A DNA stretch of 64,000 nt from Paracoccus sp. (in: a-proteobacteria) (lineage in GTDB: Bacteria > Pseudomonadota > Alphaproteobacteria > Rhodobacterales > Rhodobacteraceae): contig NZ_JBKBVD010000010.1 of assembly GCF_046289755.1 (NCBI RefSeq), positions 12,597-76,596 on the forward strand, read 5' to 3'. Below the pieces are notes generated by a model, which was not told the origin of the DNA, did not search any database, and saw only the letters and a program-made list of their open reading frames with translations. The position numbers and the translations under genes were made by a program. Shown here in pieces: positions 541 to 18,755 of this stretch; position 1 is the stretch's first letter; the number at the start of each line of letters is the position of its first letter.

Positions 541-1803
541 ATGAGCACCCCCCACCCCGATCCCCGCCGCTTTCTGACCGGCCTCTTCGAGGCCGCCGTC
601 GCGGCCGCCGATCCCCGGCAGGCGCTGGCCGCGCATCTGCCCGAGATGCCGCAGGGGCGTACCGTCGTCATCGGCGCGGGCAAGGGCGCGGCCCAGCTTG
701 CCCGCGCCTTCGAGGATCTGTGGCCAGGCCCCTGTTCGGGTGTGGTCGTGACCCGCTACGGATATGCCTGTCCCACGCGCCGGATCCGGGTGCTGGAGGC
801 CGCGCATCCGGTGCCCGATGCCGCCGGGCTGGTCGCCGCGCAGGCGCTGATGGCGGCAGTCTCGGGGCTGGGGCCGCAGGATCTGGTGGTGGCGCTGATC
901 TGCGGCGGCGGCTCGGCGCTGCTGCCGATGCCTGCCGGGGGGCTGACGCTTGACGATGAGGCGGATCTGAACCGGGTGCTGCTGGCCTCGGGCGCGCCGA
1001 TCGGGGGGATGAACGCGATCCGCAAGCAGTTTTCGGCCATCAAGGGCGGGCGGCTGGCGCTGGCGGCGCATCCGGCGCGGGTGGTCACGCTGGTCGTGTC
1101 GGACGTGCCGGGCGACGATCCGGCGCAGGTCGCATCCGGCCCGACGCTGGCCGATGCCACCACCCGCGAAGATGCGCGCCAGATGCTGCGCGACTATCGC
1201 ATCGACCTGCCGCCCCGGCTGCACGACCATCTGGCGGGCGAGGGGGCGCCCGCGCCGCTGCCCGATGATCCGCGCCTTGCAGGCCACCGGCACAGCGTCA
1301 TCGCCTCGGCCCGCCTGTCGCTGGAGGCAGCGGCTCAGGCGTCCGGGATGCCGGCGGCGATCCTGTCCGACAGCGTCGAGGGCGAGGCCGCCGATGTGGG
1401 TCGCGTCCACGCCGCCATCCTGCGCGAGATTGCCACGCGTGACCGGCCTTTCCGGCGCCCGGTGCTGCTGTTGTCGGGGGGCGAGACCACGGTCAGCATC
1501 CGCGATGGTTGCGGCAAAGGCGGGCGCAACAGCGAGTTTCTGCTGGCGCTGGCGCTGGCCGCCGAGGGGTGCCGCTTTCACGCGCTGGCCGCCGATACCG
1601 ACGGCATCGACGGGTCCGAGGCGAATGCGGGTGCCTTTGCCGATGGGACCACGGCGGCGCGGCTGCGCGCGCTTGGCCTGTCGCCGCGCGCGCTGCTGGC
1701 GGGGCATGACAGCTGGACCGCGTTCGACGCGCTTGGCGATCTGTTCCAGCCCGGCCCCACAGGCACGAATGTCAACGATTTCAGGGCTGTTCTGCTGGGC
1801 TGA
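541..1803 (+). CDS. Glycerate kinase type 2 (MOFRL family, TtuD-like)
   Basis: GAGKGAA, LICGGGSAL, VSDVPGDDPAQVASGPT, GGETTV, GGRNSE, DTDGIDG, TGTNVND motifs. Confidence 0.9.
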   Translation: MSTPHPDPRRFLTGLFEAAVAAADPRQALAAHLPEMPQGRTVVIGAGKGAAQLARAFEDLWPGPCSGVVVTRYGYACPTRRIRVLEAAHPVPDAAGLVAAQALMAAVSGLGPQDLVVALICGGGSALLPMPAGGLTLDDEADLNRVLLASGAPIGGMNAIRKQFSAIKGGRLALAAHPARVVTLVVSDVPGDDPAQVASGPTLADATTREDARQMLRDYRIDLPPRLHDHLAGEGAPAPLPDDPRLAGHRHSVIASARLSLEAAAQASGMPAAILSDSVEGEAADVGRVHAAILREIATRDRPFRRPVLLLSGGETTVSIRDGCGKGGRNSEFLLALALAAEGCRFHALAADTDGIDGSEANAGAFADGTTAARLRALGLSPRALLAGHDSWTAFDALGDLFQPGPTGTNVNDFRAVLLG

Positions 1804-2839
1804 GGGCGGGTTGATCCAGTGCGGCCTGCCATTCCGACAGCAGGCCCGCACGGCGCAGCCGGTCGCCATAGACCAGCAGGCCTGCATCCAGCCGGATCGG
1901 GCGCAATTGCGGGGCGGGGTCGGGGCCAGTGCCCTCGATCAGCGCCACGCCGCTGGCCCCGGCGATCAGTTCCTGCGCCGGGGGCGACAGCAGATAGGAC
2001 AGGAACCGCTCGCCGCCTTCGGGATCGGGCGCGTTCACCGGCAGGAAGGCGGACCGGATGATGGCCAGAATATAGTCATCCACAGCGATCTGAATCAGAT
2101 CGGGATCGTCGGGCCGGTAGCGCGCGGCATAGCTTGCGACCACATTATAGACCACCGACAGCTCGCCCGCGCGCAGATCGTCGATCATCTCACCCCAGCA
2201 GCAATACAGCTGCGCGTTCAGCCGCCCCATCACCTCGGCCAGCCGCCAGAACCCGTCCGAGACCTGATCGTCCTGCGACACGAGGAAATACCCCACGCCC
2301 GAGATCTGCGGATCATAGCTGCCGATCCGGCCCTGAAAGCGGTCGGGATGGGCGCGCAGGGTGGCGATCAGCTCGCGCCGCGTGCGCGGAATGGGCAGGC
2401 CCGCAAAGGCGCTGCGCGAGGCCAGCGTCACGACCGGCTCCAGCGCGATGCCCCATAGCTGATCGCGCCAGCGCGCCCAGTCGGGCAGACCGGCCGCCGG
2501 GGGCATGACCGGCGCGGCAAAGCCGTCATTCACCAGCCGCATCTGCAGATCCATCGCGGATGAGATGACCAGATCGAACCGCGCCCCCTCTTCGGCGATC
2601 GCCCGGTAGATCTGGGTCGACGACGCCTGCACATAGCGGATCGCATGACCCGGATGACGGGCCACGAAGTCCTCCAGCACCGGGGCAAAGGCCTGCATGT
2701 CGGTGGTCGACAGAACCGCGATACGGGGCGCGTCGTCGGGGCCAAAGACACGCTCGGCCTCGATTTCATAGCCATGGCCGGGGGCCGCAAGGGCCAGCGT
2801 CGCGGCGATCAGGCCAGCGGCAAGCTGAGCAAGGCGCAT
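1781..2839 (-). CDS. Periplasmic substrate-binding protein (AfuA/PgtC-like), co-operonic with the two-component system
   Basis: Signal peptide MRLAQLAAGLIAATLALAAPG; SSAMDLQMRLVNDG, YDPQISGVG, YNVVASYA; start overlaps sensor-kinase stop. Confidence 0.8.
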   Translation of the reverse strand: MRLAQLAAGLIAATLALAAPGHGYEIEAERVFGPDDAPRIAVLSTTDMQAFAPVLEDFVARHPGHAIRYVQASSTQIYRAIAEEGARFDLVISSAMDLQMRLVNDGFAAPVMPPAAGLPDWARWRDQLWGIALEPVVTLASRSAFAGLPIPRTRRELIATLRAHPDRFQGRIGSYDPQISGVGYFLVSQDDQVSDGFWRLAEVMGRLNAQLYCCWGEMIDDLRAGELSVVYNVVASYAARYRPDDPDLIQIAVDDYILAIIRSAFLPVNAPDPEGGERFLSYLLSPPAQELIAGASGVALIEGTGPDPAPQLRPIRLDAGLLVYGDRLRRAGLLSEWQAALDQPALSPAEQP

Positions 2840-4218
2840 GTTCCCCCCTCGGGTCGCGGGACCAGTTGAAAGCGGCCGCGATGGGCGGCGGCGACTTCGG
2901 ACACGATGGTCAGGCCCAGACCCGAGCCCGCCACATCACCGACATTGTCGCCCCTGCGGAACCGGGTGACAAGCAGCGCCGGATCGCCCGCCAGCCCGCG
3001 CCCGTCGTCGCGCAGGCTCAGCACGGCCTTGCCACCCGTCTGCGACAGGTCCAGCGCGATCACGCCCTCGGCGCGCGAATATTTCACGGCGTTGTCCAGA
3101 ATGTTGCGCAGGGCAATCTCCAGCATCCGCTCATCTCCGACGACGGGGCAGGGCGCGTCCAGCCCGGTTGCGGTGATGGTGATGTCGCGCATCTCGGCCA
3201 GAGGCTGCACCGCGCGCAGGACGGAGGCCGTCAGCACGCTCAGGTCCATGGCTGCTGCGTCGAACTGGTCGGTGCGATACATCACCATCGCATGATCCAG
3301 GATCTGGCTGGCCGAGCGGCTGCTTTCCCCGATGGCGCGCACCATGCGCCGCAGGCGGGTGCGGGTGGCCTCGTCTTGCGTTTCGGCCAGCGCCAGTTCC
3401 GCCTCGGTGCGCACCAGCGACAGGGGCGTGCGGATGCGGTGCGCGGCCTCGAAGATGAAGGTCTCGGCCAGATCGAGGGCGGCGCGCAGGCGCGCGATCA
3501 GCCCGTTCACGGATCGCAGCAAGGGCGCCAGTTCGCGCGGGGTGGGGTGGCGCACGGGCGACAGATCACGCGGGCCGCGCGCCGCGACCACCTGCGCCAG
3601 CCGCTGCACCGGCGCCAGCACCGCCTGCGCCGCCAGCAGCGCCACCGGCAGCGCCAGCGCCAGAAACCCCAGCGCCACCCAGGTCGCACCCAAAGCCGTC
3701 TCGCGCGCGATCGCGGCCTGCCCCTGCCGCGTCTGGCCAAGGATCACGGTCACCGGCGCGATGCGACCGTCGATCAGCATGGGCCGCGCGACCGCCGCAA
3801 GACGCAGTGCCGCGCCCTGATAGCTGTCGCCCCAGAACACCGGCGCCAGTCCCAAGGGCGGCTGTGGCGGCGGCGGCAGGCCCTCATAGCCGGTCACCAC
3901 CTGCCCGCCGACAAGCACGGCGTAAAAGATCCGCTCGTCCCCCATCGCGCCCAGCATCGAGAATGTCGCATAGGGCAGGTTCAGCTCCAGCCCCTCATCG
4001 ACGCTGCGCACGCCTTCGGCGATGGCGGTCACGGCAGCCCCCAGCACCGCATCCTGCGACGCGCGCGAGGCACGCTCGGCCACCCAGCCCACGGTCACGA
4101 ACAGCCCCGCGACCAGCAGCGTGGACAGGACCAGAAACTGCCAGACCAGACGCCGGCGCAGCGACCGGATGCGCGCAGGCTCCATCGCGCGGCGCAGGGC
4201 ACGGGTCGCGGCGCTCAT
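2809..4218 (-). CDS. tctE: Sensor histidine kinase, TctE-like
   Basis: Two TM segments; H-box EAAHRIRTPL, N-box NILDNAVKY, DDGRG, GSGLGLTIV; divergent from tctCBA. Confidence 0.85.
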   Translation of the reverse strand: MSAATRALRRAMEPARIRSLRRRLVWQFLVLSTLLVAGLFVTVGWVAERASRASQDAVLGAAVTAIAEGVRSVDEGLELNLPYATFSMLGAMGDERIFYAVLVGGQVVTGYEGLPPPPQPPLGLAPVFWGDSYQGAALRLAAVARPMLIDGRIAPVTVILGQTRQGQAAIARETALGATWVALGFLALALPVALLAAQAVLAPVQRLAQVVAARGPRDLSPVRHPTPRELAPLLRSVNGLIARLRAALDLAETFIFEAAHRIRTPLSLVRTEAELALAETQDEATRTRLRRMVRAIGESSRSASQILDHAMVMYRTDQFDAAAMDLSVLTASVLRAVQPLAEMRDITITATGLDAPCPVVGDERMLEIALRNILDNAVKYSRAEGVIALDLSQTGGKAVLSLRDDGRGLAGDPALLVTRFRRGDNVGDVAGSGLGLTIVSEVAAAHRGRFQLVPRPEGGTCALLSLPLA

Positions 4219-4880
4219 TCCGGGGTCAGCCGGTAGCCCACGCCGCGCAGCGTCTCGATCCGCGCGCCCGAGCCGTCCAGCTTGCGGCGCAACCGGCCCA
4301 CATAGACCTCGATCGCATTGTCGCTGACCTCTTCGTCGAAGGAAAACAGCCGGTCGATCAGATGCGATTTGGAATAGGCCTGACCGGGGCGCGACAGCAG
4401 GATTTCCAGCAGCCGCAATTCGCGCGCCCGCAATTCGCGGGTCTCGCCTGCCACGGTCACGCAGGCGGCCAGCGCGTCAAAGGTGAAGCCCGCGAAATGA
4501 CGGCGGCTGTCGGCGGCCCCCGCATGGCGGCGCAGAACGGCGCGGCAGCGGGCCTGCAATTCGGCGAAATCGAAGGGTTTGGTGATGTAATCGTCCGCCC
4601 CCTGATCCAGCGTGCCGACCCGGTCACTGACCGAGGCAGAGGCCGTCATCATGATCACCGGCGTGTCGCGTCGCGCGGCCCGTTCGCGCACCAGAAAGTC
4701 GCGACCGTCCCCGTCAGGCAAGGAAATATCAAGCAGGATCAGGTCGTAAGGCACGCTTTCCAGAAACAGCCGCGCATCGGCCAGCGTGGCGGCATGGTCC
4801 ACGCCATGCCCCTCTATCGCCAGCCGCGATGCGACGGCCTGTGCCAGTTCTGCGCTGTCTTCGACCAGTAAAAATCGCAT
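4215..4880 (-). CDS. tctD: OmpR-family response regulator, TctD-like
   Basis: LLVED, LDISLPDGDG, GADDYITKPF, VYVGRLRRKL, ETLRGVGY. Confidence 0.88.
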   Translation of the reverse strand: MRFLLVEDSAELAQAVASRLAIEGHGVDHAATLADARLFLESVPYDLILLDISLPDGDGRDFLVRERAARRDTPVIMMTASASVSDRVGTLDQGADDYITKPFDFAELQARCRAVLRRHAGAADSRRHFAGFTFDALAACVTVAGETRELRARELRLLEILLSRPGQAYSKSHLIDRLFSFDEEVSDNAIEVYVGRLRRKLDGSGARIETLRGVGYRLTPE

Positions 4881-4903
4881 CTGCCGGGTTTTTCGTCAGT
4901 CCG

Positions 4904-4919
4904 TGACAGGTTCGTGTCA
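4904..4919. promoter_or_regulatory. Inverted repeat TGACA-N6-TGTCA in the tctD/tctC divergent promoter (candidate TctD site)
   Basis: tgaca ggttcg tgtca read directly; the assignment to TctD is inference from position. Confidence 0.4.
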
Positions 4920-4985
4920 GCTTTTCACCAAATGCTGTGCCCCGCAAGCCCGCCATATCCCGTGCGGGCAGTCTGGGAGGACAGC

Positions 4986-5945
4986 ATGAAAAAATGGACC
5001 CGTGCAGCCGTGGCTGCACTGACGATGAGCGTCGCGACCCCGGCCTTGTCCGCCGAATGTATCGCACCGGCAAACCCCGGCGGTGGCTGGGACTTTACCT
5101 GCCGCCAGATCGGCCGGATCATGACCGAACTGGGGCTGGTCCCGAACATGGTGCAGGTGACCAACCTTGCCGGCGCGGGCGGCGGCGTGGCCTATACGCA
5201 GGTCGTCAGCAAGCGCGGCAGCGATCCGGAGGTGTTCGTGGCGGCATCCTCGGCCACCACGACCCGTCTGGCGCAGAACGCATTTGCCGGTGCGACCGCC
5301 GATCAGGTGCGGTGGGTCGGCTCGATCGGTGGCGATCCCGGCGTGATCGTCGTGGCGCAGAACAGCCCGTTCCAGTCGCTGACCGATCTGGTCGAGGCGG
5401 TGAAGGCCGATCCGGGCAGCGTGGCCTTTGCGGGCGGGTCCGCCGTGGGCGGGTTCGACCATCTCAAGGTGCTGATGACGATGGACAAGGCAGGCTTTGG
5501 CGATGCCCGCGCGATCAAGTATATCGGCCTTGACGGCGGTGCCGACGCGATCACCCAGACCGTCGGCGGGTTCGCGCAGGCGATGACCGGCGATCTGTCG
5601 GAAATCACCGGCTTTATCCGCTCGGGCGATGTGCGCCCCATCGCGGTTCTGTCGGAAAACCGCGTCACGGGTTTTGACGATGTGCCGACAGCCAAGGAAC
5701 AGGGCGTGGACATCGTGGCGATGAACTGGCGCGGCGTCTATGTGCCCAAGGACATCAGCGACGAAGACTATCAGAAATGGGTCGACATGCTGCGCCAGGT
5801 CGGGGAATCCGAGCAGTGGCAGTCGGTGATGGCCGAGAATGGTCTGGAATCCTACGCCCTGTTTGGCGAGGAATTCGAGACCTTCGTGAATGACAACATT
5901 GCCGAGGTGCAGGACATCTCGCGCGAGATCGGTCTGATCCAATGA
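4986..5945 (+). CDS. tctC: Tripartite tricarboxylate transporter substrate-binding protein TctC
   Basis: PANPGGGWDFTCR, NLAGAGGG, GGSAVGGFDH, NWRG; start at MKKW after GGGAGG RBS. Confidence 0.92.
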   Translation: MKKWTRAAVAALTMSVATPALSAECIAPANPGGGWDFTCRQIGRIMTELGLVPNMVQVTNLAGAGGGVAYTQVVSKRGSDPEVFVAASSATTTRLAQNAFAGATADQVRWVGSIGGDPGVIVVAQNSPFQSLTDLVEAVKADPGSVAFAGGSAVGGFDHLKVLMTMDKAGFGDARAIKYIGLDGGADAITQTVGGFAQAMTGDLSEITGFIRSGDVRPIAVLSENRVTGFDDVPTAKEQGVDIVAMNWRGVYVPKDISDEDYQKWVDMLRQVGESEQWQSVMAENGLESYALFGEEFETFVNDNIAEVQDISREIGLIQ

Positions 5946-6385
5946 TCAGAGGCGACCGCATCTTCGGAGCGTTCATGCTGGTCGTGGCGTTGGGGTATAT
6001 CCTCAGCGCCCGCAGCATCGCGACAAGCTTCATGTCCGATCCCGTCGGGCCGCGGGTGTTTCCCTATCTGGTCGCTGCGGTCGTCATCATCTCGGCGCTG
6101 GTGATGATCCTGCGCCCCGACCCCGACGAGGAATGGCCCGCAGGCCCGATGGTGGGCCAGCTTGGTCTCGCGCTGGTTGTGCTGGCGGGCTATTCGCAGG
6201 CGATCAGCCCGCTTGGCTTCCTGATCCCCACGACTGTCGTGGCGGGTATCCTCAGCTGGCAGATCGGCGGCAATCCGATGCGCTCGGCCCTGACGGGGCT
6301 GGGGCTGTCGGTGGGCCTGTTCGTGCTGTTCCGTATCATCCTGGGACTGGGCCTGCGCGGCCTGCCCGAAGGCATGGGGTTCTAG
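5942..6385 (+). CDS. tctB: TTT small membrane subunit TctB
   Basis: Four hydrophobic helices, DPVGPRVFP, LGFLIPT; ATGA overlap with tctC. Confidence 0.88.
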   Translation: MIRGDRIFGAFMLVVALGYILSARSIATSFMSDPVGPRVFPYLVAAVVIISALVMILRPDPDEEWPAGPMVGQLGLALVVLAGYSQAISPLGFLIPTTVVAGILSWQIGGNPMRSALTGLGLSVGLFVLFRIILGLGLRGLPEGMGF

Positions 6386-6389
6386 ATCA

Positions 6390-7919
6390 ATGGAAACACT
6401 AGCCAATCTGGCGATGGGATTTTCCATCGCCCTGACGCCCTATACCCTGATGCTGGCGATCATCGGCTGTTTCGTGGGCACGATCATCGGCGCGCTGCCG
6501 GGCCTTGGTCCGTCGAACGGCGTGGCGCTGCTGATCCCGATCTCGTTCTCGATGGGGCTGGACGCGATCTCGGCGCTGGTGCTGCTGACCTCGGTCTATT
6601 ACGGCGCGATGTATGGCGGGCGGATCAGTTCGATCCTGCTGAACATTCCGGGCGATGAGCCTGCGATGATGACGACGCTGGACGGCTATCCCATGGCCAA
6701 GCAAGGGAAGGCCGCTGAGGCGCTGGTCGTGTCGGGCGTGGCGTCCTTTGTGGGCGCGATGCTGGCCACGATCGGGCTGATGATCTTTGCGCCCTATCTG
6801 GCGCGGGTGGCCTATCAGTTCGGCCCGGCCGAGTATTTTGCCCTCTATATGCTGGCCTTCTGCACGCTTGGCGGGATCGGGTCCAGCAATCAGGCCAAGG
6901 CCGCCATGGCCGCCGCCATCGGTCTGGGCATTGCCATGATCGGCATGGACAAGACCACCGGCATGCCGCGCTTTACCTTTGGCGAGCTGCACCTGATGGA
7001 CGGGGTCGATTTCCTTGTCGCCATCGTCGGTCTGTTCGCGGTGGCCGAGGTGTTCCACTTTATCGAAAGCCACGGCAAGAACAGCGCCATCGGCGTCAAG
7101 CTGGGCAAGATCCTTGTCCCGTGGAAGATGCTGAAGCAAACGACCGGCGCCATGCTGCGCGGCACCGGTATCGGCTTTGTGGCGGGTGTTCTGCCCGGCG
7201 CGGGCGCATCGCTTGGTTCGTTTCTGGCCTATATGGCCGAGAAATCGGTCGCCAAGGACAAGGACAAGGCATCGTTCGGCAAGGGCAACCCCCGCGGCGT
7301 CGCAGCGCCCGAGGCAGGCAATAACGCCGCAGCCGGTGGCGCGCTGGTGCCGATGCTGACGCTTGGCGTGCCGGGCTCGGGCACGACCGCCGTGCTGCTG
7401 GCGCTGCTGCTGACGCTGAACATCACGCCCGGTCCGCTGCTGTTCGCCGAGCGCCCCGAGGTGGTGTGGTCGCTGATCGCGTCGCTGCTGATTGCCAACG
7501 TCGTGCTGCTGGTGATGAACGTTCCGATGGTCAAGGTGTTCGTGCGGATCCTGTCGGTGCCCGCATGGGTGCTGCTGCCGGGCGTGACGATGATCGCCTT
7601 TGTGGGGATCTATTCGCTGACCGGCTCCAGCTTTGACATGCTGCTGATGGTGGGTTTCGGCGTTCTGGGCTATGTCATGCGCAAGCTGGGCATTCCCACG
7701 GTCCCGGTGATCCTGGGCATCCTGCTGGGCAACGCGATGGAGGACAACCTGCGTCGTGCCATGGTGCTGTCGAACGGCGAGTGGTCCTATCTGCTGTCCT
7801 CGCCCATCGCTATCGGCTTGTGGGTCGCGGCGATTGTTGGTTTTGTCGCGCCGATCTTCCTGCGGCGCATTCTGAAGAAACCCGCGGTCCCCCACGACCC
7901 GACCCTGAACGAGGACTGA
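6390..7919 (+). CDS. tctA: TTT large permease TctA
   Basis: GALPGLGPSNGVALL, YYGAMYGG, NIPGDE, GVAAPEAGNNA, LTLGVPGS. Confidence 0.95.
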   Translation: METLANLAMGFSIALTPYTLMLAIIGCFVGTIIGALPGLGPSNGVALLIPISFSMGLDAISALVLLTSVYYGAMYGGRISSILLNIPGDEPAMMTTLDGYPMAKQGKAAEALVVSGVASFVGAMLATIGLMIFAPYLARVAYQFGPAEYFALYMLAFCTLGGIGSSNQAKAAMAAAIGLGIAMIGMDKTTGMPRFTFGELHLMDGVDFLVAIVGLFAVAEVFHFIESHGKNSAIGVKLGKILVPWKMLKQTTGAMLRGTGIGFVAGVLPGAGASLGSFLAYMAEKSVAKDKDKASFGKGNPRGVAAPEAGNNAAAGGALVPMLTLGVPGSGTTAVLLALLLTLNITPGPLLFAERPEVVWSLIASLLIANVVLLVMNVPMVKVFVRILSVPAWVLLPGVTMIAFVGIYSLTGSSFDMLLMVGFGVLGYVMRKLGIPTVPVILGILLGNAMEDNLRRAMVLSNGEWSYLLSSPIAIGLWVAAIVGFVAPIFLRRILKKPAVPHDPTLNED

Positions 7920-7920
7920 C

Positions 7921-9270
7921 ATGGCCACACGCGTATTGGTGCCCTCGGGCGTTCTGGGTCTCGGCTTTGACGCACAGGCGCTGGCACGCGGGGTGGCGAT
8001 GTCGCCCGACATCATCTGCATCGACGGAGGGTCCACCGACAGTGGGCCCTTCAGCCTTGGCGCGGGGGTGTCGAAATATTCCCGCGCCGCAACGAAATCG
8101 GAATGGCGCGCGCTGATGCTGGCCCGTGCGCAGGCCGGGGTGCCACTGGTCATCGGCACGGCGGGCACCTGCGGCACCGACAGCACCGTGGACTGGATGT
8201 TCGATCTGACGGTCGAGCTTGCGGCCGAGCTGGGCCAGTCCCTGTGCGTCGCACGGCTCTATTCCAGCCAGCCCGTGGCGCGTCTGGCCGAGGCGCAGGC
8301 CGGGGGCCGCATCGCACCCCTGACGCCCGCGCCCGAATTCCGGCTGGATGACCTGACCAATATCGTCGCACTGGCCGGGGCCGAGCAGATCCACGCCGCA
8401 CTGGCCACCGGCGCCGACATCATCATCGCGGGCCGCACCACCGACACCGCCACCATCGCCGCATTGCCGCTGTCGCGCGGCGCCCATCCCGGCGGCTGCT
8501 GGCATGGCGCCAAGATCGCCGAATGCGGGGCGCTGTGTTCGACCAACCCGACCTCGGGCGTGATCATGGTCGATTTCGACGCGGCGGGGTTCACCGTGAC
8601 CCCGCTGGCCGAGACCGCGCGCTGCACGCCGCATTCGGTCAGCGCGCATATGCTCTATGAGAATTCGGACCCGTTCCGCCTGTACGAGCCCGGCGGTTAT
8701 CTGGATGTGACCGCCGCGCGCTATGCCGCGCTGGACGATCGTCGCGTGCGGGTCGAGGGGTCCGAATGGGTGCCCGGCCCCTATACGGTCAAGCTGGAGG
8801 GCGCGCGGATCGCGGGCTATCAGACCACCATTCTGGCGATCCTGCGCAATGCCCATTACGCCGGGAATGCGCGCGCATGGGTCACGCGCCTGACCGGCTT
8901 TCTGCATGCCGAGATCGCGCGCCGGATGGGTCTGACGCAGGACGCCTACAGCATCGAATTTCGTCTGATCGGCGTCGATGGCGCGCTTGGGGGCCTTGAG
9001 AACCGCACGGGCGATCCCGTCGAGGTGGGCGTTCTGGGCATCGTCACCGCCCGCACGCAGGCCGAAGCTGCCGAAATCGGCAAGCTGATCAACCCGTTTG
9101 TGTTGCATTACCCGCTGACCGATGACGAGGAACTGCCGACCTTCGCATTTCCCTATTCCCCCGCGACCACCGATCGCGGCCCCTTGTATGAATTCGCGCT
9201 GAACCATGTGATGCAGCTCGACGATCCCATGTCGGCCTTCCGCCTGACCGTGACCGAGGTGACCCCATGA
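7921..9270 (+). CDS. AtuA-family (DUF1446) protein
   Basis: PSGVLGLG, DGGSTDSGP, GTAGTCG, GRTTDTA, WHGAKIAECGALC, HMLYENSDP. Confidence 0.85.
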   Translation: MATRVLVPSGVLGLGFDAQALARGVAMSPDIICIDGGSTDSGPFSLGAGVSKYSRAATKSEWRALMLARAQAGVPLVIGTAGTCGTDSTVDWMFDLTVELAAELGQSLCVARLYSSQPVARLAEAQAGGRIAPLTPAPEFRLDDLTNIVALAGAEQIHAALATGADIIIAGRTTDTATIAALPLSRGAHPGGCWHGAKIAECGALCSTNPTSGVIMVDFDAAGFTVTPLAETARCTPHSVSAHMLYENSDPFRLYEPGGYLDVTAARYAALDDRRVRVEGSEWVPGPYTVKLEGARIAGYQTTILAILRNAHYAGNARAWVTRLTGFLHAEIARRMGLTQDAYSIEFRLIGVDGALGGLENRTGDPVEVGVLGIVTARTQAEAAEIGKLINPFVLHYPLTDDEELPTFAFPYSPATTDRGPLYEFALNHVMQLDDPMSAFRLTVTEVTP

Positions 9271-9569
9271 CCACGCTTGGCGATCTTGTCCTGAAGGTGC
9301 GGTCCAAGAATGCCGGGCCGTTCTGGGTGACCATCGACGTGTTCTGCGACGAACCGGCGATCTTCCAGCGCCTGACACGCGATCTGACCAGCGACCGCGT
9401 GGCCGCGCTGTTCCACGTCGCGCCCCAGACGCTGAAGCGCTTTGACATTGCCGGTCTGCGGGTGATCAAGTTCAGCCTGCCGCGCCCGGTCGTGCAGGGA
9501 TCGGCCGCCGACCGCGACATGCACGGCGCCCAATATGCCGCCCTGCTGGAAGAGATGACGATTGACTAA
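9267..9569 (+). CDS. DUF4387 (AtuA-associated small protein)
   Basis: VRSKNAGPFWVTID and DMHGAQY motifs; ATGA overlap with upstream AtuA-like gene. Confidence 0.8.
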   Translation: MTTLGDLVLKVRSKNAGPFWVTIDVFCDEPAIFQRLTRDLTSDRVAALFHVAPQTLKRFDIAGLRVIKFSLPRPVVQGSAADRDMHGAQYAALLEEMTID

Positions 9570-10581
9570 AGCGCGCCTGACCACCTTTGTCGCAGCCCTT
9601 GCCGGGGCTGCGGTCTTTCTGCTGATCGGTCTGCCGCTGCCCTGGCTGCTGGGGCCGATGCTGGGCTGCGTGATCGTGGCGCTGGCGGGCGCGCGGATGG
9701 CGGGGGCGGGGCAGTTCGGCGTCTTCATGCGCACCTTTCTGGGGGTGGCCGTCGGTGCCTCGATCACCCCCGAGGTGCTGACGGGCCTGCCCGCCATCGC
9801 CGGGTCGCTGGCCATCGTGCCGGTCTTTATCGTGGTGATCGCGCTGATCGGCTATCCGCTGTTCCGCCGCGTCTTTGGCTTTGACCACCCGACCGCGTGG
9901 TATGCGGCCATGCCGGGCGGGCTGCAGGACATGCTGGTCTTTGGCGAAGAGGCGGGCGGCGACATCCGCGCCCTGTCGCTGATCCATGCGACGCGGATTC
10001 TGGTGATCGTGACCGTCGCGCCGCTGATCATGACGTTTTACTGGCAGGTCGATCTGACCCAGCCCCCCGGCGCGCCCCTGGCCTCGGTCGCGTGGGACCA
10101 GATCGCGCTGATGGTGGTGGCGGGCATCGCGGGCTGGAAGATCGGCGAGCGGGTGGGCCTGTTCGGCGCCTCGATCCTGGGGCCGATGATCCTGACGGCG
10201 GCTTTGTCGCTGACGGGCGTGATCCAGACCCGCCCCCCGGCCGAGATCATTCAGGCCGCGCAATTCTTTATCGGCATTGCGGTGGGCGCGAAATATGCGG
10301 GCATCACCGCCCGCGAATTGCGGGTCGATGTGACCGCGGGGCTGGTCTATTCGCTGATGCTGGCCGTGGTCAGCCTGATTTTCCTTGAGATCGTCTATCT
10401 GCTGGGGCTCGCGCCCGCGCTGGACGCGTTTCTGGCCTTTCTGCCCGGCGGGCAGGCCGAGATGGTGATTATCGCCATCATCGCGGGCGCCGATCTGGCC
10501 TATGTCGTCAGCCACCATATCCTGCGGATCGTGCTGGTGATCCTGCTGGCGCCGGTTGCCGCGCGGTTTCTGAACCGCTAG
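9562..10581 (+). CDS. AbrB-family (AidB regulator / ammonia-monooxygenase-like) membrane protein
   Basis: Duplicated LPWLLGPM / GASILGPM halves, AMPGGLQDM, LPGGQAEM, HHILRI; TTG start. Confidence 0.85.
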   Translation: MTKARLTTFVAALAGAAVFLLIGLPLPWLLGPMLGCVIVALAGARMAGAGQFGVFMRTFLGVAVGASITPEVLTGLPAIAGSLAIVPVFIVVIALIGYPLFRRVFGFDHPTAWYAAMPGGLQDMLVFGEEAGGDIRALSLIHATRILVIVTVAPLIMTFYWQVDLTQPPGAPLASVAWDQIALMVVAGIAGWKIGERVGLFGASILGPMILTAALSLTGVIQTRPPAEIIQAAQFFIGIAVGAKYAGITARELRVDVTAGLVYSLMLAVVSLIFLEIVYLLGLAPALDAFLAFLPGGQAEMVIIAIIAGADLAYVVSHHILRIVLVILLAPVAARFLNR

Positions 10582-11327
10582 CCGCGCAGCGCAGGCAGCC
10601 CCACCCCCGCCGCGTCGAAACCCCCGTCGGCGGCCAGGATCTGGCCGGTGACATAGCTGGCGCGGTCCGAGCACAGGAACACGATGGCCTCGGCAATCTC
10701 GGTCTCGCGCCCGTAGCGGTTCAGCGGGATCGCGTCGTGATAGGCCGCCCGGATCGCCGGGCTGTGCACCGCCAGCGCCAGCTTGGTATCGACCGGTCCC
10801 GGCGCCACGCAATTGGCGCGGATGCCCCATTCGCCCAGTTCCACCGCCTGCTGCCGCGTCAGATGGATCACCGCCGCCTTCGAGGTGCCGTAAGCCACCC
10901 GCAGCGTCGAGGCCCGCAGCCCCGAGATCGAGGCTACATTGACGATGGCGCCGCGCGTGGGTTTCAGATGCGGGATCACCGCCTGCGAGGTCAGGAAGAC
11001 CCCGTCCAGATTGGTCCCCATGACCCAGCGCCACGTTTCAAGATCGGTCTCGGCGAGGGGTCGGAAATCGGCCACGCCCGCATTGTTGACCAGCGCGTCG
11101 ATGCGACCCGCCCACTGCGCCACATCGGCCACCATGGCGGCGACCTGACCGGGATCAGAGATGTCGCAGGTCACGGCGCGGGTGCCGGGCAGGCTCGCCA
11201 CCTGCGCCAGTTCCTCGCCGTCCAGATCTACCATGGCCACACGCCAGCCCTGATCCAGCAGCAGCCGGGTGGTGGCCAGCCCGATGCCGCGCGCGGCGCC
11301 GGTGACGATGGCGGTCTTGTCAGTCAT
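10578..11327 (-). CDS. SDR-family oxidoreductase
   Basis: TGAARGIG, NNAG, YGTSK catalytic motif, PG; last gene of the TRAP unit. Confidence 0.9.
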   Translation of the reverse strand: MTDKTAIVTGAARGIGLATTRLLLDQGWRVAMVDLDGEELAQVASLPGTRAVTCDISDPGQVAAMVADVAQWAGRIDALVNNAGVADFRPLAETDLETWRWVMGTNLDGVFLTSQAVIPHLKPTRGAIVNVASISGLRASTLRVAYGTSKAAVIHLTRQQAVELGEWGIRANCVAPGPVDTKLALAVHSPAIRAAYHDAIPLNRYGRETEIAEAIVFLCSDRASYVTGQILAADGGFDAAGVGLPALRG

Positions 11328-11349
11328 GGGATCTCCTTTCGGGATGGGA

Positions 11350-12681
11350 CTAGCGCAGCCATTGCACCAGCGTCAGCGAGATCGAGGGGAAGGCCGCCAC
11401 CACCGCCAGACCCACAAGCGCAGCCGCCAGAAAGGGCAGGGCGCCACGGGCCACCCGCTCGATGCTGAGGTTGGCGGTGTTGGCGGCGACATAGAGGTTG
11501 ATGCCCACGGGCGGCGTGATCAGCCCGATGGCCAGGTTGATCATCACCACGACCCCGAACCAGACCGGGTCCCAGCCAAGGCTGCGCATGACCGGCAGCA
11601 CGATGGGCAGGGTGATGAACATGACGGTGATCGCATCCATGAACATGCCCGCGATCAACAGGATCAGCATGATGACGGCAAGGATCACCCATTGATTGTC
11701 GCTGATGCCCAGCAGGCCGCTGGAATAGGTGCCGACCAGATCCTCGACCGTGATGACCCAGCCGAACAGGGCCGCATAGGCCACCACCAGCATGACCGTG
11801 GCCGAGGATGCCGCCGCATCGCTCAGCGCCGCATACAGCCCGCGCAGGCTCAGGCTGCGATAGATCAGACCACCCACGGCCATGGCATAGACGGTGGCGA
11901 CCAGCGCGGCCTCGGTCGGTGTGAAGATGCCCGAATAGATGCCGCCAAGGATCACCACCGGCGTCATCAGCCCCCAGAAGGCGTCGCGGAACCCCAGCCA
12001 CAGCCGCCGCCCGTAAGCCGCGCCCACATAGGGGGCGGGCGACAAAGCGGCCAGTCCCGGCCCCGTAGCTGGCCCCCGCACATGACCGCGCCGCGCCAGC
12101 AGGGGCAGCACCGCCAGCATGGTCAGCCCCATGAACAGCCCCGGCAGGATCGCCGCCAGAAACAGCTGCGAGATCGAGACCTCGGCAATCACCCCGTAAA
12201 GGACCAGCCCGATCGAGGGCGGGATGACGATGGACAGCGCCGCCCCCGCGCAGACCAGACCCGCCGCATGGGCGCGGGAATAGCCGTCCTCCTCCATGCC
12301 CTTGATGATCATCGGCCCGATGGCCGCGACCGAGGCGGGCCCCGAGCCGCTGACCGCCCCCCAGAACAGGCAGACGACCGTGCCGACCAGCCCCATGCCG
12401 CCGGGCAATCCGCCCACCAGCACGCGGAAAAAGCGGATCATCCGCTCGGCGATGCCGGTGCTGCCCATCAGCGCGCCCGCAAGGATAAAGAACGGGATCG
12501 CCAGCAGCGAATAGCGCGCCACGCCCGCGCTGATCAGATCGCCCGCAAGATCGAGGCCAAAGCCGATCCGCCACATCGCATAGATCGCCGACAGGCCAAG
12601 CGCAAAGGCCACCGGCACCCGCAGCGCCAGCAGCGCGAAGAACAGCAGCACCATCTGCGTGCCCGCATCCAGATCAGGCAT
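11350..12681 (-). CDS. dctM: TRAP transporter large permease DctM
   Basis: LLAIPFFILAG, SGSGPASVAAIG, IPPSI, FTPTEAA, ITPPVG; start set at MPDLD. Confidence 0.92.
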   Translation of the reverse strand: MPDLDAGTQMVLLFFALLALRVPVAFALGLSAIYAMWRIGFGLDLAGDLISAGVARYSLLAIPFFILAGALMGSTGIAERMIRFFRVLVGGLPGGMGLVGTVVCLFWGAVSGSGPASVAAIGPMIIKGMEEDGYSRAHAAGLVCAGAALSIVIPPSIGLVLYGVIAEVSISQLFLAAILPGLFMGLTMLAVLPLLARRGHVRGPATGPGLAALSPAPYVGAAYGRRLWLGFRDAFWGLMTPVVILGGIYSGIFTPTEAALVATVYAMAVGGLIYRSLSLRGLYAALSDAAASSATVMLVVAYAALFGWVITVEDLVGTYSSGLLGISDNQWVILAVIMLILLIAGMFMDAITVMFITLPIVLPVMRSLGWDPVWFGVVVMINLAIGLITPPVGINLYVAANTANLSIERVARGALPFLAAALVGLAVVAAFPSISLTLVQWLR

Positions 12682-13168
12682 CACGGCCTCCGGTCTCTCC
12701 TGTCCCGCCATGGCGGAATTCCTCGACCGTGTGCTGCACAAAGCGCGCCGCGATCAGCAGAAAGGCAAAGGGCACCGCCGCCTGATAATACCACGCCGGA
12801 ATCCCCAGCGCGTAAGAGCGCAGGCCGTTGGCATAAAGGATCGTCAGCGATTGCCAGGCCAGCCAGCTGGACGCCAGCAGCAGCCCGACCGACAGCGCCG
12901 CCGACAGCACCACCACCGGCAGGCGCAAGGCGCCGGGCAGCAGATCGACCGCCGCCGTCACCGCCAGATGCTGGCCGCGCCGCGCCGCGATCGCCGCGCC
13001 AAAGACGGTCAGCAGCAGAAAGCCGTTGGTCAGCAGCTCTTCGGACGAGGCCAGCGAATAGTTCGTGCCATAGCGCACCACGACATTGGCAAAGCCCAAC
13101 AGCGTCATCCCCAGAAACAGGACCGCGCAGATCAGTTTTTCCGCCTCGCGGAACAGGAAGGCAAGCAT
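12674..13168 (-). CDS. dctQ: TRAP transporter small permease DctQ
   Basis: NVVVRY, SEEL, FGAAIAARRGQHLAV; four TM helices. Confidence 0.88.
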   Translation of the reverse strand: MLAFLFREAEKLICAVLFLGMTLLGFANVVVRYGTNYSLASSEELLTNGFLLLTVFGAAIAARRGQHLAVTAAVDLLPGALRLPVVVLSAALSVGLLLASSWLAWQSLTILYANGLRSYALGIPAWYYQAAVPFAFLLIAARFVQHTVEEFRHGGTGETGGRDA

Positions 13169-13249
13169 GAGCACCCCGGATGCGCTGGGGGCACGGCCGC
13201 GGCCGGGCCATGCCCCTGATGTCAGTTGTCGCCTGTCAGCTGGCGCGCC

Positions 13250-14257
13250 TCAGTTGGCGGTGGCGATGGCCTGCTGGAACGCCCCGACCAGATCCGGGCC
13301 GACACGCTCGGCCCATTGATCGAAGGCGGGCTGGGTCGCCTCGCGGAAGGCGGCGATTTCGTCGGCGCTGGCCTCGTGCACCTCCATCCCGCGTTCGCGT
13401 AGGAAGGCGATGCCGGTCTCGGTGCTCTCGCGGGTGATGTCCTTCTGATAGGCCATCGCCTCCAGCGCCACCTCGCGGATCATCGCTTGCTGCGCTTCGT
13501 CATAGCTGTCCCATTTCGCCTTTGAGATGCCAAGGAACACCGGGTCATAGGAATAATGCCAGGTGGTCAGATAGCGCTGCACCTCATAGACCTGCTGCGG
13601 GATGATGACGGCGCCGATGGGGTTTTCCTGCCCGTCCACCACGCCCTGCTGCAGCGCGGTCAGGGTCTCGGTCCACTGCATCTGCTGGGGATTGGCGCCA
13701 AGCGCGTTCATCACGTCGATATACATCGGCCCCGCGACGCGCATGTTCAGGCCGCGCATATCCTCGGGGCTGGTGATCGGGCGGACATTGTTGGTCACCT
13801 CGCGAAAGCCGTTCTCGCCCCAGGCCAGCACCATGATGCCCTGACCCTCAAGCAGCTCGGCCAGCCGGTCGGCGGGGCCGCCGGGCGCGGTCGTCGCATC
13901 GACCTGTTCATAGCCGGAATAGAGATAGGGCAGCGAGAACACCGCCATTTCGGGCACCAGCGGCGTGACGTTGATGGCCGAGGTCACGACCAGATCCAGC
14001 GCGCCGCGCCCGACCATATCGGCCTGCCGCATCTGGTCGCCACCGGCCAGCTGGGCGTTGGGGAAGACGCGCACGTCGATCTCGCCGCCCGAGCGTTCGG
14101 CCAGCAGTTCGCCGAATTTCTCGGCGCCCTTGTGCCATGTGGTGCCGTCGCCGGTATTGTGCGACAGGCGCAGCGTTTCCGCCGTCACCGCCCCCGCGCC
14201 AAGCGCAACCGCCATTGCCGTGGCCAGCGCGAAGCGGCCCAGTCCTGTGAATGTCAT
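13250..14257 (-). CDS. dctP: TRAP transporter substrate-binding protein DctP
   Basis: Signal peptide; FPNAQL, ENGFREVTN, GLNMRV (conserved carboxylate-binding Arg), LQQGVVDGQENP. Confidence 0.92.
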   Translation of the reverse strand: MTFTGLGRFALATAMAVALGAGAVTAETLRLSHNTGDGTTWHKGAEKFGELLAERSGGEIDVRVFPNAQLAGGDQMRQADMVGRGALDLVVTSAINVTPLVPEMAVFSLPYLYSGYEQVDATTAPGGPADRLAELLEGQGIMVLAWGENGFREVTNNVRPITSPEDMRGLNMRVAGPMYIDVMNALGANPQQMQWTETLTALQQGVVDGQENPIGAVIIPQQVYEVQRYLTTWHYSYDPVFLGISKAKWDSYDEAQQAMIREVALEAMAYQKDITRESTETGIAFLRERGMEVHEASADEIAAFREATQPAFDQWAERVGPDLVGAFQQAIATAN

Positions 14258-14405: not shown

Positions 14406-15203
14406 ATGGACATGTCCGATCAGCCCGGCGGCACCCAAAGCGTCGACCGGGCGCTGGCGCTGCTGGATCTGATCGCACGCGGCCCCGATGAAGGGGTCGG
14501 GCTGGCCGCATTGGTGGCCGCTTCGGGGCTGAACAAGGCCACCGTGCGGCGGCTGGTGCTGGCGCTGATCCGGGGCGGGCTGGTGGCGCAGGATGCGGCC
14601 TCGCGGCTGTATCATCTGGGCGATCAGGCGCAGGTTCTGGGCGCGCGGGCTGTGCGCCATCCGGGGCTGGCGCGGGTCGCGGGCGAAAGCGTGATGCGGC
14701 TGGCGCAGGAGACGGGGGATGCGGCGCTGCTGTCGGTCCGGCGCGGCGCCTCGGCGCTGTGCCTGATGCGCGAAGAGGGGGCCTATCCGCTGCGCACCCA
14801 TGCGCTGATGCCCGGCCAGATGCACCCGCTTGGGGTCGGCGCGGGTTCGCTTGCGATGCTGGCGGCGCTGCCGGATGATGAGGCGCGGGCGGTCATCGCC
14901 GCCAATGCCGATCACCTCGCGCGCCACTATCCCGACTTTACCGCCCACGCGCTGACCGCGCAGATCGCGCAGGTCCGCGCGGCGGGCGTGGCGCTGAATC
15001 CGGGCCGGGTGATCGAGGGGTCATGGGGTCTGGGCATCGCGCTGCACCATCCCGGCGGGCGGCTGGCGGGCGCGCTGTCGGTGGCGGCGGTCGAGGCCCG
15101 GATGCGCCCCGACCGCCTGCCCGACCTGACCCGCCGCCTGCGCGCCGAGGCCGCGCGCATCGAAACACGGCTTGCGCAGGACGCGCAGAAAGGACCGACA
15201 TGA
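14406..15203 (+). CDS. IclR-family transcriptional regulator
   Basis: TQSVDRALALL HTH, GLNKATVRRL, PLGVGAGSLAML, GALSVAA. Confidence 0.9.
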   Translation: MDMSDQPGGTQSVDRALALLDLIARGPDEGVGLAALVAASGLNKATVRRLVLALIRGGLVAQDAASRLYHLGDQAQVLGARAVRHPGLARVAGESVMRLAQETGDAALLSVRRGASALCLMREEGAYPLRTHALMPGQMHPLGVGAGSLAMLAALPDDEARAVIAANADHLARHYPDFTAHALTAQIAQVRAAGVALNPGRVIEGSWGLGIALHHPGGRLAGALSVAAVEARMRPDRLPDLTRRLRAEAARIETRLAQDAQKGPT

Positions 15204-16369
15204 CCGATCCCGTCATCCTTGGCTGGGGCCACAGCCTCTTTGGCAAATCCCCGCATGAGGACACCGAAAGCCTGATGGCCGAGGTGGTGCCTGCCGCGCT
15301 GGACCATGCGGGCATCACGGCGGGCGATGTCGATGGCATCTTTGTGGGCGTGTTCAACAACGGTTTCTCGGCGCAGGATTTTCAGGCCGCATTGGTCGGC
15401 ATGGGCGATCCGGCGCTGGCCCAGATCCCCGCGACCCGGTTCGAGAATGCCTGCGCCACCGGATCGGCTGCCCTGTTCGGGGCTGCGGATTTCATCGCCT
15501 CGGGGCGGGGTCGGATCGCGCTGGTCGTGGGCGCCGAGAAGATGACCGCGACGCCCACGGCTGAGGTGGGCGAGATCCTGCTGGGCGCCAGCTATCGCCG
15601 CGAAGAGGCGTCGGTCGAGGCCGGGTTCGCGGGTCTCTTCGGCCAGATCGCGGCAGGCTATTTCCAGCGTTACGGTGATCGCTCGCAGGAACTGGCGATG
15701 ATCGCGGCCAAGAACCACGAAAACGGCATGCGCAATCCATACGCCCATATGCGCAAGGATCTGGGGGTGGAATTCTGCGCCACCATCAGCGACCGCAATC
15801 CGCGCGTGGCGGGACCGCTGCGGCGCAGCGACTGCTCGCTGATCTCGGACGGGGCGGCGGCTTTGGTGCTGGCCCATCCCGATCTGGCGGCGGATGCGCC
15901 GCGCGCCATCGGTTTTCGTGCCCGCGCGCAGGCCAATGACGTGATGGCCCTGTCGCGCCGCGATGTGCTGGAATTCCGCGGCGCCCGCCGCGCATGGGCG
16001 CAGGCGCTGGCGGCGGCGGGCGTGACGCTGGACGATCTGTCGCTGGTCGAGACGCATGACTGTTTCACCATCGCCGAGATGCTGGAATACGAGGCGATGG
16101 GGCTGGCCGAACCGGGGCAGGGGCATCGCGTCATCCGCGAGGGCCTGACCCATCGCGGCGGGCGGCTGCCGGTGAACCTGTCGGGCGGGCTGAAATCCAA
16201 GGGCCATCCCATCGGCGCCACCGGCGTCTCGCAGCATGTCATGGCCGCGATGCAACTGGCCGGTGAGGCGGGCGGGATGCAGCTTGCAGGCGCGACCATG
16301 GCGGGGGTCTTCAACATGGGGGGCGCTGCGGTCACGAACTATGTCTCGATCCTGGAGCGGCTGAGATGA
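15200..16369 (+). CDS. SCP2-type thiolase-family protein
   Basis: ENACATGSAA, ETHDCFTIAE, SGGLKSKGHPIGATG, NMGG; ATGA overlap with iclR. Confidence 0.88.
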   Translation: MTDPVILGWGHSLFGKSPHEDTESLMAEVVPAALDHAGITAGDVDGIFVGVFNNGFSAQDFQAALVGMGDPALAQIPATRFENACATGSAALFGAADFIASGRGRIALVVGAEKMTATPTAEVGEILLGASYRREEASVEAGFAGLFGQIAAGYFQRYGDRSQELAMIAAKNHENGMRNPYAHMRKDLGVEFCATISDRNPRVAGPLRRSDCSLISDGAAALVLAHPDLAADAPRAIGFRARAQANDVMALSRRDVLEFRGARRAWAQALAAAGVTLDDLSLVETHDCFTIAEMLEYEAMGLAEPGQGHRVIREGLTHRGGRLPVNLSGGLKSKGHPIGATGVSQHVMAAMQLAGEAGGMQLAGATMAGVFNMGGAAVTNYVSILERLR

Positions 16370-17937: not shown

Positions 17938-18755
17938 TGCGGGTGCTGACCCATCCCGGCCCGGTCGCAGCGCGGCGTCTGATCGCGGTGCCCTGCCGCG
18001 CGCAGACGGTCACATTGCCCCTGCGCGCGGGGCTGGCGCTGGACCGGGCGGTGGCCGGGGCATTCGCCGGGGCGGGGTTTCAGGCAGGTTATCTGCGTCT
18101 GGCCGCTCTGCCGTTGTCGGCGCTGGCCTGGGTGATCCCGGCGCGCGCGGCGCCCGGCAACCCCCGCGTCGCCTGGTTCAGCGACACCCGCCGCGCGGCG
18201 GGCGGCACGATCATCGCGGGCGGCCTGCATCTGGGCGCGCGCGACGGCCAGCCCTTCGTGCATTGCCACGGGCTCTGGCGCGACCCGGATGGCGCGCGTC
18301 ATGCGGGCCATCTGCGCGCCGACGAGACGGTTCTGGCACAGGACTGCACCGCCCAGGGCTGGGGCCTCAGCGGCGCCCGTTTCGAGGTGCAGCACGACCC
18401 CGAGACCGGCTTTCCCCTGTTCACCCCGCAGCCCTTCGGCGCCATGGGACCGGGCGAACCCGCGACACTGCAGCGCCTTTGCCCCAATCAGGACCTGTCC
18501 CGTGCGCTGGACGGCCTGCCCGACGGCACGCGGATCGAGGGCATTGGCAGCCTGATCGGCACCCGCTTCGACGACGCGCCCCCGATCGACGGCCCCGCGA
18601 CCGAGATCTGGCTGCGCGAGGGGCGCATCGCCCAAGGCACAGCCCGGCTGCGCGCGGTCTCGGTCGGCATGGACGGCACCGCGCAGGAGGGCTGGCTGAG
18701 CCGCGACGAAAACGCCGTCTGCGTCACCGCCGAACTGCTGATCCTGCCCGCCTAG
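17937..18755 (+). CDS. Tandem PPC/DUF296-like domain protein
   Basis: VHCHGLW...AGHL motif in domain 1; IEGIGSL...AELLI degenerate domain 2; TGATG coupling to the ligase. Confidence 0.65.
   Translation: MRVLTHPGPVAARRLIAVPCRAQTVTLPLRAGLALDRAVAGAFAGAGFQAGYLRLAALPLSALAWVIPARAAPGNPRVAWFSDTRRAAGGTIIAGGLHLGARDGQPFVHCHGLWRDPDGARHAGHLRADETVLAQDCTAQGWGLSGARFEVQHDPETGFPLFTPQPFGAMGPGEPATLQRLCPNQDLSRALDGLPDGTRIEGIGSLIGTRFDDAPPIDGPATEIWLREGRIAQGTARLRAVSVGMDGTAQEGWLSRDENAVCVTAELLILPA

Follow-up and report, generated by a model that had tools for sequence, protein, structure and literature searches.

A probable sense/import/cleave module for a hydroxycarboxylic acid in Paracoccus, containing an enzyme pair related to citramalate lyase

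A stretch of 64 kb of DNA from Paracoccus sp. (contig NZ_JBKBVD010000010.1; hereafter the window) carries a unit of six plus-strand genes at positions 4986-10581. They encode a tripartite tricarboxylate transporter (TTT) of the TctCBA type, an AtuA-family (DUF1446) protein, a DUF4387 protein and an AbrB-family membrane protein, and lie divergent from the genes of a two-component system. The AtuA-family and DUF4387 proteins are homologous to the recently solved citramalate lyase CmlAB, share its fold and belong to a separate clade. We consider it likely, from gene content and neighbourhood, that the cluster forms a self-contained, horizontally mobile module by which a hydroxy di- or tricarboxylic acid is sensed, imported and cleaved. 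Genes were called on this high-GC Paracoccus DNA from a listing of open reading frames (ORFs) combined with Pfam and NCBIfam scans of the window. The assembly has a size of 3.86 Mb in 102 contigs, and the nearest relatives of the window's own proteins are Paracoccus proteins throughout.

In the proposed mechanism, the acid would be detected in the periplasm by the TctE-like kinase, probably aided by an orphan binding protein, and the TctD-like regulator would then bind a GTGACA-N5-GTGTCA repeat and switch on the six-gene operon. TctCBA would take up the acid, and the AbrB-family protein, which is optional, would be a further carrier, either of the same acid or of a product. The AtuA-family and DUF4387 proteins would act as a heteromeric, nucleotide-binding C-C lyase of the CmlAB type, independent of coenzyme A (CoA) and of acyl carrier protein (ACP), that cleaves the acid into acetate and a 2-oxo acid. 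Both products would pass straight into central metabolism, which would account for the fact that the module contains no dehydrogenase, CoA-transferase or other enzyme.

Kinship of the lyase pair with CmlAB

In phmmer searches, the AtuA-family protein (7921-9270, plus strand; Pfam AtuA, 81 bits) aligned over residues 4-449 with PDB 9erq_A, 'Citramalate lyase, subunit A' (cmlA), at an E-value of 7.5e-71, and the DUF4387 protein (9267-9569, plus strand; Pfam DUF4387, 88 bits) aligned with 9erq_B, 'Citramalate lyase, subunit B' (cmlB), at 1.6e-11. Both align over their full length with CmlAB and are predicted to be a CmlA-like large and a CmlB-like small lyase subunit, respectively. An AlphaFold2 model of the large subunit, with a predicted local distance difference test score (pLDDT) of 90, was compared with the PDB by Foldseek, and the sole match at E<=0.001 was 9evf_A, with a template modelling (TM) score of 0.92 and an E-value of 1.7e-50. 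The corresponding entry, released on 2025-10-08, bears the title 'Citramalate lyase - ADP - pyruvate complex'. In the heterocomplex of 9ERQ and 9EVF, chain A is the large and chain B the small subunit.

The enzyme of Raoultella planticola, supplied as a gift by the Berg laboratory, has been used as a CoA-independent citramalate lyase (bioRxiv 10.64898/2026.01.16.699985), and in 2015 the same laboratory described a DUF1446 gene located behind that for methylaspartase in Enterobacteriaceae and Dictyoglomus (PMC4682846). An earlier note on this DNA, made from the sequence alone, had correctly pointed to this link with methylaspartate-pathway genes. Its statement that the cluster holds no lyase of known function does not stand, given the homology to CmlAB, and its description of AtuA as lacking an assigned reaction and of DUF4387 as uncharacterised has been overtaken by the structures of October 2025 and by the preprint cited above.

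Related loci were collected by a scan of one genome per species, which returned 568, and the best 80 loci (65-88% identity to the window protein) were analysed; all neighbour counts include only loci with enough flanking sequence. The DUF4387 gene is adjacent to the AtuA-family gene in 74 of 74 loci and adjoins it in every context examined, and single-protein AtuA+DUF4387 fusions are present among the family representatives. Because of this adjacency, these fusions and the heterocomplex in the PDB, the view that the two proteins form a heteromeric two-subunit enzyme is supported. The earlier note had proposed a two-subunit lyase, hydratase or isomerase acting on an imported carboxylate; the heterocomplex agrees with the two subunits, and of the three activities the solved homologue backs the lyase. 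In the representative library, the AtuA family divides into 1842 clusters when grouped at 50% identity. One representative (P0314, 1096 aa) unites AtuA, DUF4387 and a family III CoA-transferase domain in one protein, which suggests that some family members work on or beside CoA esters.

According to its database name, the AtuA-family protein would act in the utilization of acyclic terpenes (citronellol/geraniol). Its Pfam AtuA score exceeds the threshold (81 versus 22.8 bits), and public records use that name. However, the match is partial over the Pfam model, and atu/liu genes (geranyl-CoA carboxylase, acyl-CoA dehydrogenase, hydratase) are found neither near the module nor in the 80 loci. 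The partners of the protein are a carboxylate importer and a sensor, and the module's neighbours in the window are a transporter, a sensor, a short-chain dehydrogenase/reductase (SDR) and a tripartite ATP-independent periplasmic (TRAP) system. We therefore give a role in terpene utilization practically no credence.

Linkage of sensor, importer and lyase genes

All six plus-strand genes were found to belong to the expected Pfam families. The three TTT proteins are encoded together and each scores above its Pfam cut-off, namely, the periplasmic binding protein TctC (4986-5945; PF03401, 94 bits), the small membrane subunit TctB (5942-6385; PF07331) and the large permease subunit TctA (6390-7919; PF01970, 502 bits). 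The tctC ORF spans 4914-5945, and its likely start is the ATG at 4986, with GGGAGG in front of it and a signal peptide after it. Solved relatives of TctC were considered as a guide to its ligand but rejected as too distant, the best of them reaching only 109 bits.

The genes are tightly coupled. ATGA overlaps join tctC to tctB and the AtuA-family gene to the DUF4387 gene, gaps of 4 nt and 1 nt separate tctB from tctA and tctA from the AtuA-family gene, and the DUF4387 gene overlaps abrB by 8 nt. No intergenic terminator-like site is present in the six-gene unit, all such matches falling within coding regions. The arrangement is far beyond chance because it is seen again in dozens of species. 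The Pfam families, the junctions and the divergent regulator and kinase genes thus bear out the earlier note's description of six tightly coupled genes under a dedicated sensor; what that description missed is an orphan binding-protein gene (2839-1781) in the sensor operon.

The sensor operon lies on the minus strand. Its first gene encodes an OmpR/PhoB-type response regulator (4215-4880; Pfam Response_reg and Trans_reg_C) that appears closest to TctD, its best NCBIfam match (NF012023), with a score of 186 bits that lies under the 337-bit equivalog cut-off. The second encodes a TctE-like sensor histidine kinase (2809-4218; Pfam 2CSK_N, the periplasmic domain, HisKA and HATPase_c). The third and last gene (1781-2839) encodes a periplasmic solute-binding protein of 352 aa with a signal peptide and an FbpA/ModA-type fold (Pfam SBP_bac_11 and SBP_bac_1), which has no permease or ATPase partner. 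Since its gene is kept behind that of the kinase in 47 of the 61 related loci, this protein is probably a co-sensor of the kinase, after the examples of TorT/TorS or BctC/BctE. Its first PDB match is 3c9h (8.7e-46), followed by FbpA-type iron-binding proteins (about 1e-29). A ligand was sought from 3c9h, but this entry carries no name and no paper citing it was found; the RefSeq label of the protein in P. seriniphilus is 'substrate-binding domain-containing protein'.

The FbpA-type relatives would fit a handling of metal-carboxylate chelates, in which the FbpA-like protein senses an iron complex, TctCBA imports it and the lyase destroys the chelator to free the metal, and one pair of a sister clade does adjoin genes for a TonB-dependent receptor and a PepSY_TM protein. 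However, the best match 3c9h is without iron annotation, the 80 loci share no conserved iron-regulation element or further iron gene, and TTT systems are not known as iron-chelate importers. Chelate handling is consequently considered very improbable, and a co-sensor of the carboxylic acid is the preferred role of the binding protein.

The divergent promoter region of 105 nt contains the direct repeat GTGACAGGTTCGTGTCA at 4903-4919, 67 nt before the tctC ATG. This repeat matches once in the 64-kb window, where 0.02 matches are expected. Of 50 related loci, 41 have it upstream of tctC when up to 2 mismatches are tolerated; its matches across both strands of all 1.34 Mb of loci amount to 131. 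The periodicity of 11 bp suits an OmpR-family regulator, and the repeat is a candidate operator for the TctD-like response regulator.

Neighbours were counted in the related loci from our own gene calls, based on GC content at third codon positions (GC3), with subsequent clustering, and separately by tblastn with the window proteins. TctA is encoded directly upstream of the lyase gene in 60 of 72 loci, and genes for TctB (55/70), TctC (54/68), the response regulator (50/66) and the kinase (46/62) accompany it. The genome-neighbourhood check of DUF1446 and DUF4387 that the earlier note had envisaged thus reveals, beside the invariable adjacency of the pair, a conserved sensor-importer context. 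The same architecture emerges from independent gene calls with Pfam labels and from the RefSeq annotation of the P. seriniphilus megaplasmid, and sister clades with 37-41% identity are TTT-linked too.

The linkage of sensor, importer and lyase outlasts gene rearrangement. In one locus (L120), the lyase genes lie inside the regulator-kinase-binding-protein operon and face a distant TTT paralogue, and in three others (L082, L085 and L089) the order tctC-tctB-tctA-abrB is divergent from the lyase genes. Because a single sensor, a single importer and a single enzyme are encoded side by side, one and the same molecule should act as inducer, as TctC ligand and as lyase substrate. Among the 1312 clustered predicted proteins from the 80 loci, no further conserved enzyme was found, and it would follow that both products are central metabolites, namely, acetate together with pyruvate, oxaloacetate, glyoxylate or acetoacetate. 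A different operon order is found on the Shinella plasmid pShin-02 (L122, 7081-15339), where a pair with 64% identity is encoded in the order GntR, AtuA, DUF4387, TctC, TctB, TctA, Ldh-family oxidoreductase, TIM-barrel protein and cupin; it is possible that the trailing enzymes catalyse later steps for the oxo-acid product in that lineage.

The last gene of the unit (9562-10581, plus strand) encodes an AbrB-family polytopic membrane protein, a predicted secondary transporter. It matches PF05145 with 263 bits over positions 1-313 of 314, and TIGR03082 with 167 bits (cut-off 94.7) in two stretches that correspond to a duplicated domain. The Pfam name AbrB is a misnomer for these duplicated polytopic membrane proteins, and PF05145 has been placed in a transporter class with the CPA/AT reentrant fold; it comes nearest to GltS, and the citrate carrier CitS served as the template for its model (PMC8396727). 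AbrB is encoded in 31 of 68 loci and is an optional, lineage-variable part of the module that is found in two different arrangements; two loci (L095 and L032) have kept the lyase-AbrB combination with no TTT system nearby. The favoured role is that of a second carrier for the substrate, the alternative being product export. Of the exporter or accessory transporter that the earlier note had suggested, the accessory role is plausible in view of the CitS/GltS-type fold. Further AbrB paralogues of the genome were inspected for a functional hint but offered none; they are not TTT-linked. In the P. seriniphilus replicon p599725 (L121), a gene pair for an MbcA/ParS-type antitoxin and a RES-family toxin (9739-10601) stands in place of AbrB.

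Substrate and chemistry of the TTT-linked clade

CmlA orthologues were searched for with the 9erq_A sequence, rebuilt from its alignment to the window protein, and were found to share at least 62% identity from Enterobacteria to Riflebacteria and Lentisphaerae. Judged by its sequence, the window pair is not a CmlAB orthologue. Nevertheless, 90 of the 190 Cml-invariant columns are identical and invariant in the clade of the window protein, and the shared invariant polar motifs include D35-G-G-S-T-D40, R55, R172/D175, H195/K198/E201/C202, H243/Y246/E247, K291/E293 and H396. A match to MAAL_C, indicative of methylaspartate ammonia-lyase, is absent from the whole genome, and genes for glutamate mutase, methylaspartase and mesaconase are found neither near the module in the window nor in the 80 loci. 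The TTT-linked pair would thus employ the CmlAB machinery, with a ligand that is probably different.

Several observations weigh against the reading of the cluster as a sense/import/cleave module with a CmlAB-type lyase. The large subunit is only 36% identical to CmlA, and the TTT-linked and Cml clades fall into different halves of the tree with 100% support each (113 members). At 62 Cml-invariant positions other residues have become fixed in the clade, including Y45S, H89T, Y174T, R233A, R301Q, K248N and H348R, and therefore the substrate, and conceivably also the chemistry, may differ. About 12 orthologues (68-76% identity), interspersed in the tree, are without a TTT system and adjoin genes for the hydantoinase/oxoprolinase HyuAB, a class IV aminotransferase, a GGT-family hydrolase, DAO or TauD, so that the substrate may not always be imported as such. 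In addition, the co-transcription of the six genes is judged from gene spacing only.

In betaproteobacterial homologues with 45-50% identity, the order HyuB-HyuA-2-hydroxyacid dehydrogenase-AtuA-DUF4387-TctC recurs, and the acid may also form inside cells from nitrogen-containing precursors. Orthologues or near homologues of the lyase pair are accompanied by HyuAB in L086 (1878-12563), L093 (6021-11668), L124 and L125, and other recurring partners are an aminotransferase, a hydrolase, DAO, TauD and a dehydrogenase. These HyuAB-linked loci appear to encode a nitrogen-compound pathway, so far uncharacterised, that ends in the same lyase type.

To our knowledge, citramalate lyase is the only biochemically assigned AtuA/DUF4387 member. 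As this sole characterised relative is a citramalate lyase, the window pair might be one as well, permitting growth on external (S)-citramalate, or on mesaconate after its hydration by fumarase. Pyruvate and acetate as products would need no added enzymes, which matches the neighbourhood, and TTT systems transport C4-C6 carboxylates. However, the low identity to CmlA and the position in a different, fully supported clade contrast with the close similarity among CmlA orthologues, and the altered Cml-invariant positions include lost arginines. Furthermore, the genome has no methylaspartate pathway, and the orthologues beside enzymes for nitrogen compounds do not point to citramalate. A plain citramalate lyase is therefore rated as rather unlikely.

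On chemical grounds, a free carboxylate does not serve well as an electron sink in such a cleavage. We speculate that a transient acyl-phosphate would serve as the thioester does in the classical citrate and citramalate lyases. By analogy with the solved enzyme, C-C cleavage and use of the nucleotide site seen in 9EVF would also hold for the TTT-linked clade. The CmlAB fold and its nucleotide site could alternatively be used for chemistry without cleavage, such as that of an ATP-dependent kinase or ligase, an isomerisation or a hydration, with the finishing enzymes encoded elsewhere in the genome. The AtuA family is very large and deep, as the number of its clusters indicates, clade-specific substitutions are numerous, homologues both close and more distant recur beside the ATP-dependent HyuAB and 2-hydroxyacid dehydrogenases, and the solved enzyme binds ADP. 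However, the polar motif residues that are conserved in common with CmlA have nearly all been kept, and the product of a non-cleaving enzyme would need dedicated enzymes, none of which is conserved in the 80 loci. We regard non-cleaving chemistry as improbable and prefer a C-C lyase.

It is a serious, if still tentative, proposal that the TTT-linked clade represents a CoA-independent, nucleotide-assisted lyase of new specificity, whose substrate would not be (S)-citramalate but, for instance, citrate, (R)-citramalate or 3-hydroxy-3-methylglutarate. The best single guess for the substrate is (S)- or (R)-citramalate, doubtful as it is for either form; on the whole, an analogue of citramalate has the greater likelihood, be it citrate, 3-hydroxy-3-methylglutarate or another 2-substituted malate.

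Mobility, significance and comparison with known systems

The module is present as a single copy in the genome and was detected in only 2 of 24 other Paracoccus species sampled; an even sampling of 400 genomes of the class yielded it just 3 times (E <= 1e-120). Pannonibacter sequences are nested within the Paracoccus branch, and the GC content of the module (64%) differs from that of the 5' end of the window (72%) and of the region downstream (66-70%). One copy of the module is located on a mobilizable megaplasmid of P. seriniphilus, and in one locus (L018) a YhgA-like transposase gene (7599-8936) is inserted between tctA and the lyase gene. The module is taken to be an accessory, horizontally moving element because of this patchy distribution, the nesting of Pannonibacter, the GC contrast, the transposase gene and the megaplasmid copy.

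The genes that flank the module in the window belong to other units. A convergent operon on the minus strand (10578-14257) encodes an SDR (10578-11327) and the TRAP proteins DctM (11350-12741) and DctP (13250-14257), and the stop codon of its SDR gene overlaps that of abrB by 4 nt, which leaves no space for a terminator between the two units. Further downstream, a plus-strand unit unrelated to the module (15023-18755) encodes a thiolase-like protein, an AMP-binding acyl-CoA synthetase and a 276-aa protein without a Pfam match. On the other side, a glycerate 2-kinase gene (DUF4147 and MOFRL; 541-1803, plus strand) is convergent with the binding-protein gene and overlaps its end by 23 nt. This kinase was considered as a hint of a hydroxypyruvate-forming substrate and rejected, as none of the 80 loci has a homologue within 10 kb.

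The earlier note had seen in this cluster a good candidate for an undescribed pathway. This is overstated because the enzyme type has been known since 2025, and the cluster is better described as a subfamily of a newly described enzyme type in a gene context of its own. As yet uncharacterised are this clade, its substrate, its probably binding-protein-assisted sensor and its AbrB partner. A second AtuA/DUF4387 specificity should be simplest to find in the TTT-linked clade. Matched stretches with the module number at least 568 in the genome collection, and culturable type strains are among its carriers, one of them having it on a megaplasmid; examples of culturable carriers are Paracoccus hibiscisoli CCTCC AB2016182 and P. 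seriniphilus DSM 14827. A new specificity, if true, would establish a catabolic route with one enzyme in hundreds of species. An AbrB-family (PF05145) transporter would for the first time be assigned a substrate, and a TctE-type kinase would prove to depend on an FbpA-fold periplasmic binding protein as co-sensor. Once the substrate is solved, pathway engineering would gain a CoA-free module for cleavage in a single step, a use to which CmlAB is already put. At the same time, a function would be assigned to the misnamed AbrB membrane family and the misannotation "acyclic terpene utilization" would be corrected.

Among known systems, CmlAB of Raoultella planticola and other enterobacteria (9ERQ, 9EVF) resembles the window pair in its AtuA-family and DUF4387 subunits, its overlapping genes, its polar motifs and, by the model, its fold; it needs no CoA, ACP or further pathway enzymes, as is predicted for the window pair too. 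However, the CmlAB genes are linked to those of glutamate mutase, methylaspartase and mesaconase, whereas those of the window pair are linked to a TTT system, a two-component sensor and AbrB, and their host is an aerobic alphaproteobacterium without methylaspartase. CitDEF-type citrate and citramalate lyases share the predicted net reaction, in which a 2-hydroxy-2-substituted succinate yields acetate and a 2-oxo acid. They consist, however, of unrelated proteins and use an ACP-bound thioester, whereas the module has no acyl carrier subunit and no genes for prosthetic-group synthesis and would use no CoA chemistry, and the solved relative of its pair binds ADP. AtuA of Pseudomonas aeruginosa belongs to the same Pfam family, but the module lacks the atu/liu context, its subunits are split and a carboxylate importer is coupled to them.

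The citrate systems TctCBA/TctDE of Salmonella and BctCBA/BctDE of Bordetella have in common with the module the transporter families and a divergent response regulator with a 2CSK_N-type kinase. They differ in that the window regulator scores below the TctD cut-off (186 versus 337 bits) and in that the module has an additional FbpA/ModA-fold binding protein, a lyase and an AbrB-family carrier. Another parallel is provided by TorT/TorS, LuxP/LuxQ, ChvE/VirA and BctC/BctE, in which a periplasmic binding protein without a permease is likewise encoded and conserved with a kinase that has a periplasmic domain. In contrast to these binding-protein-assisted kinases, the window protein is of the FbpA/ModA fold, and its putative interaction with the kinase is suggested by gene linkage.

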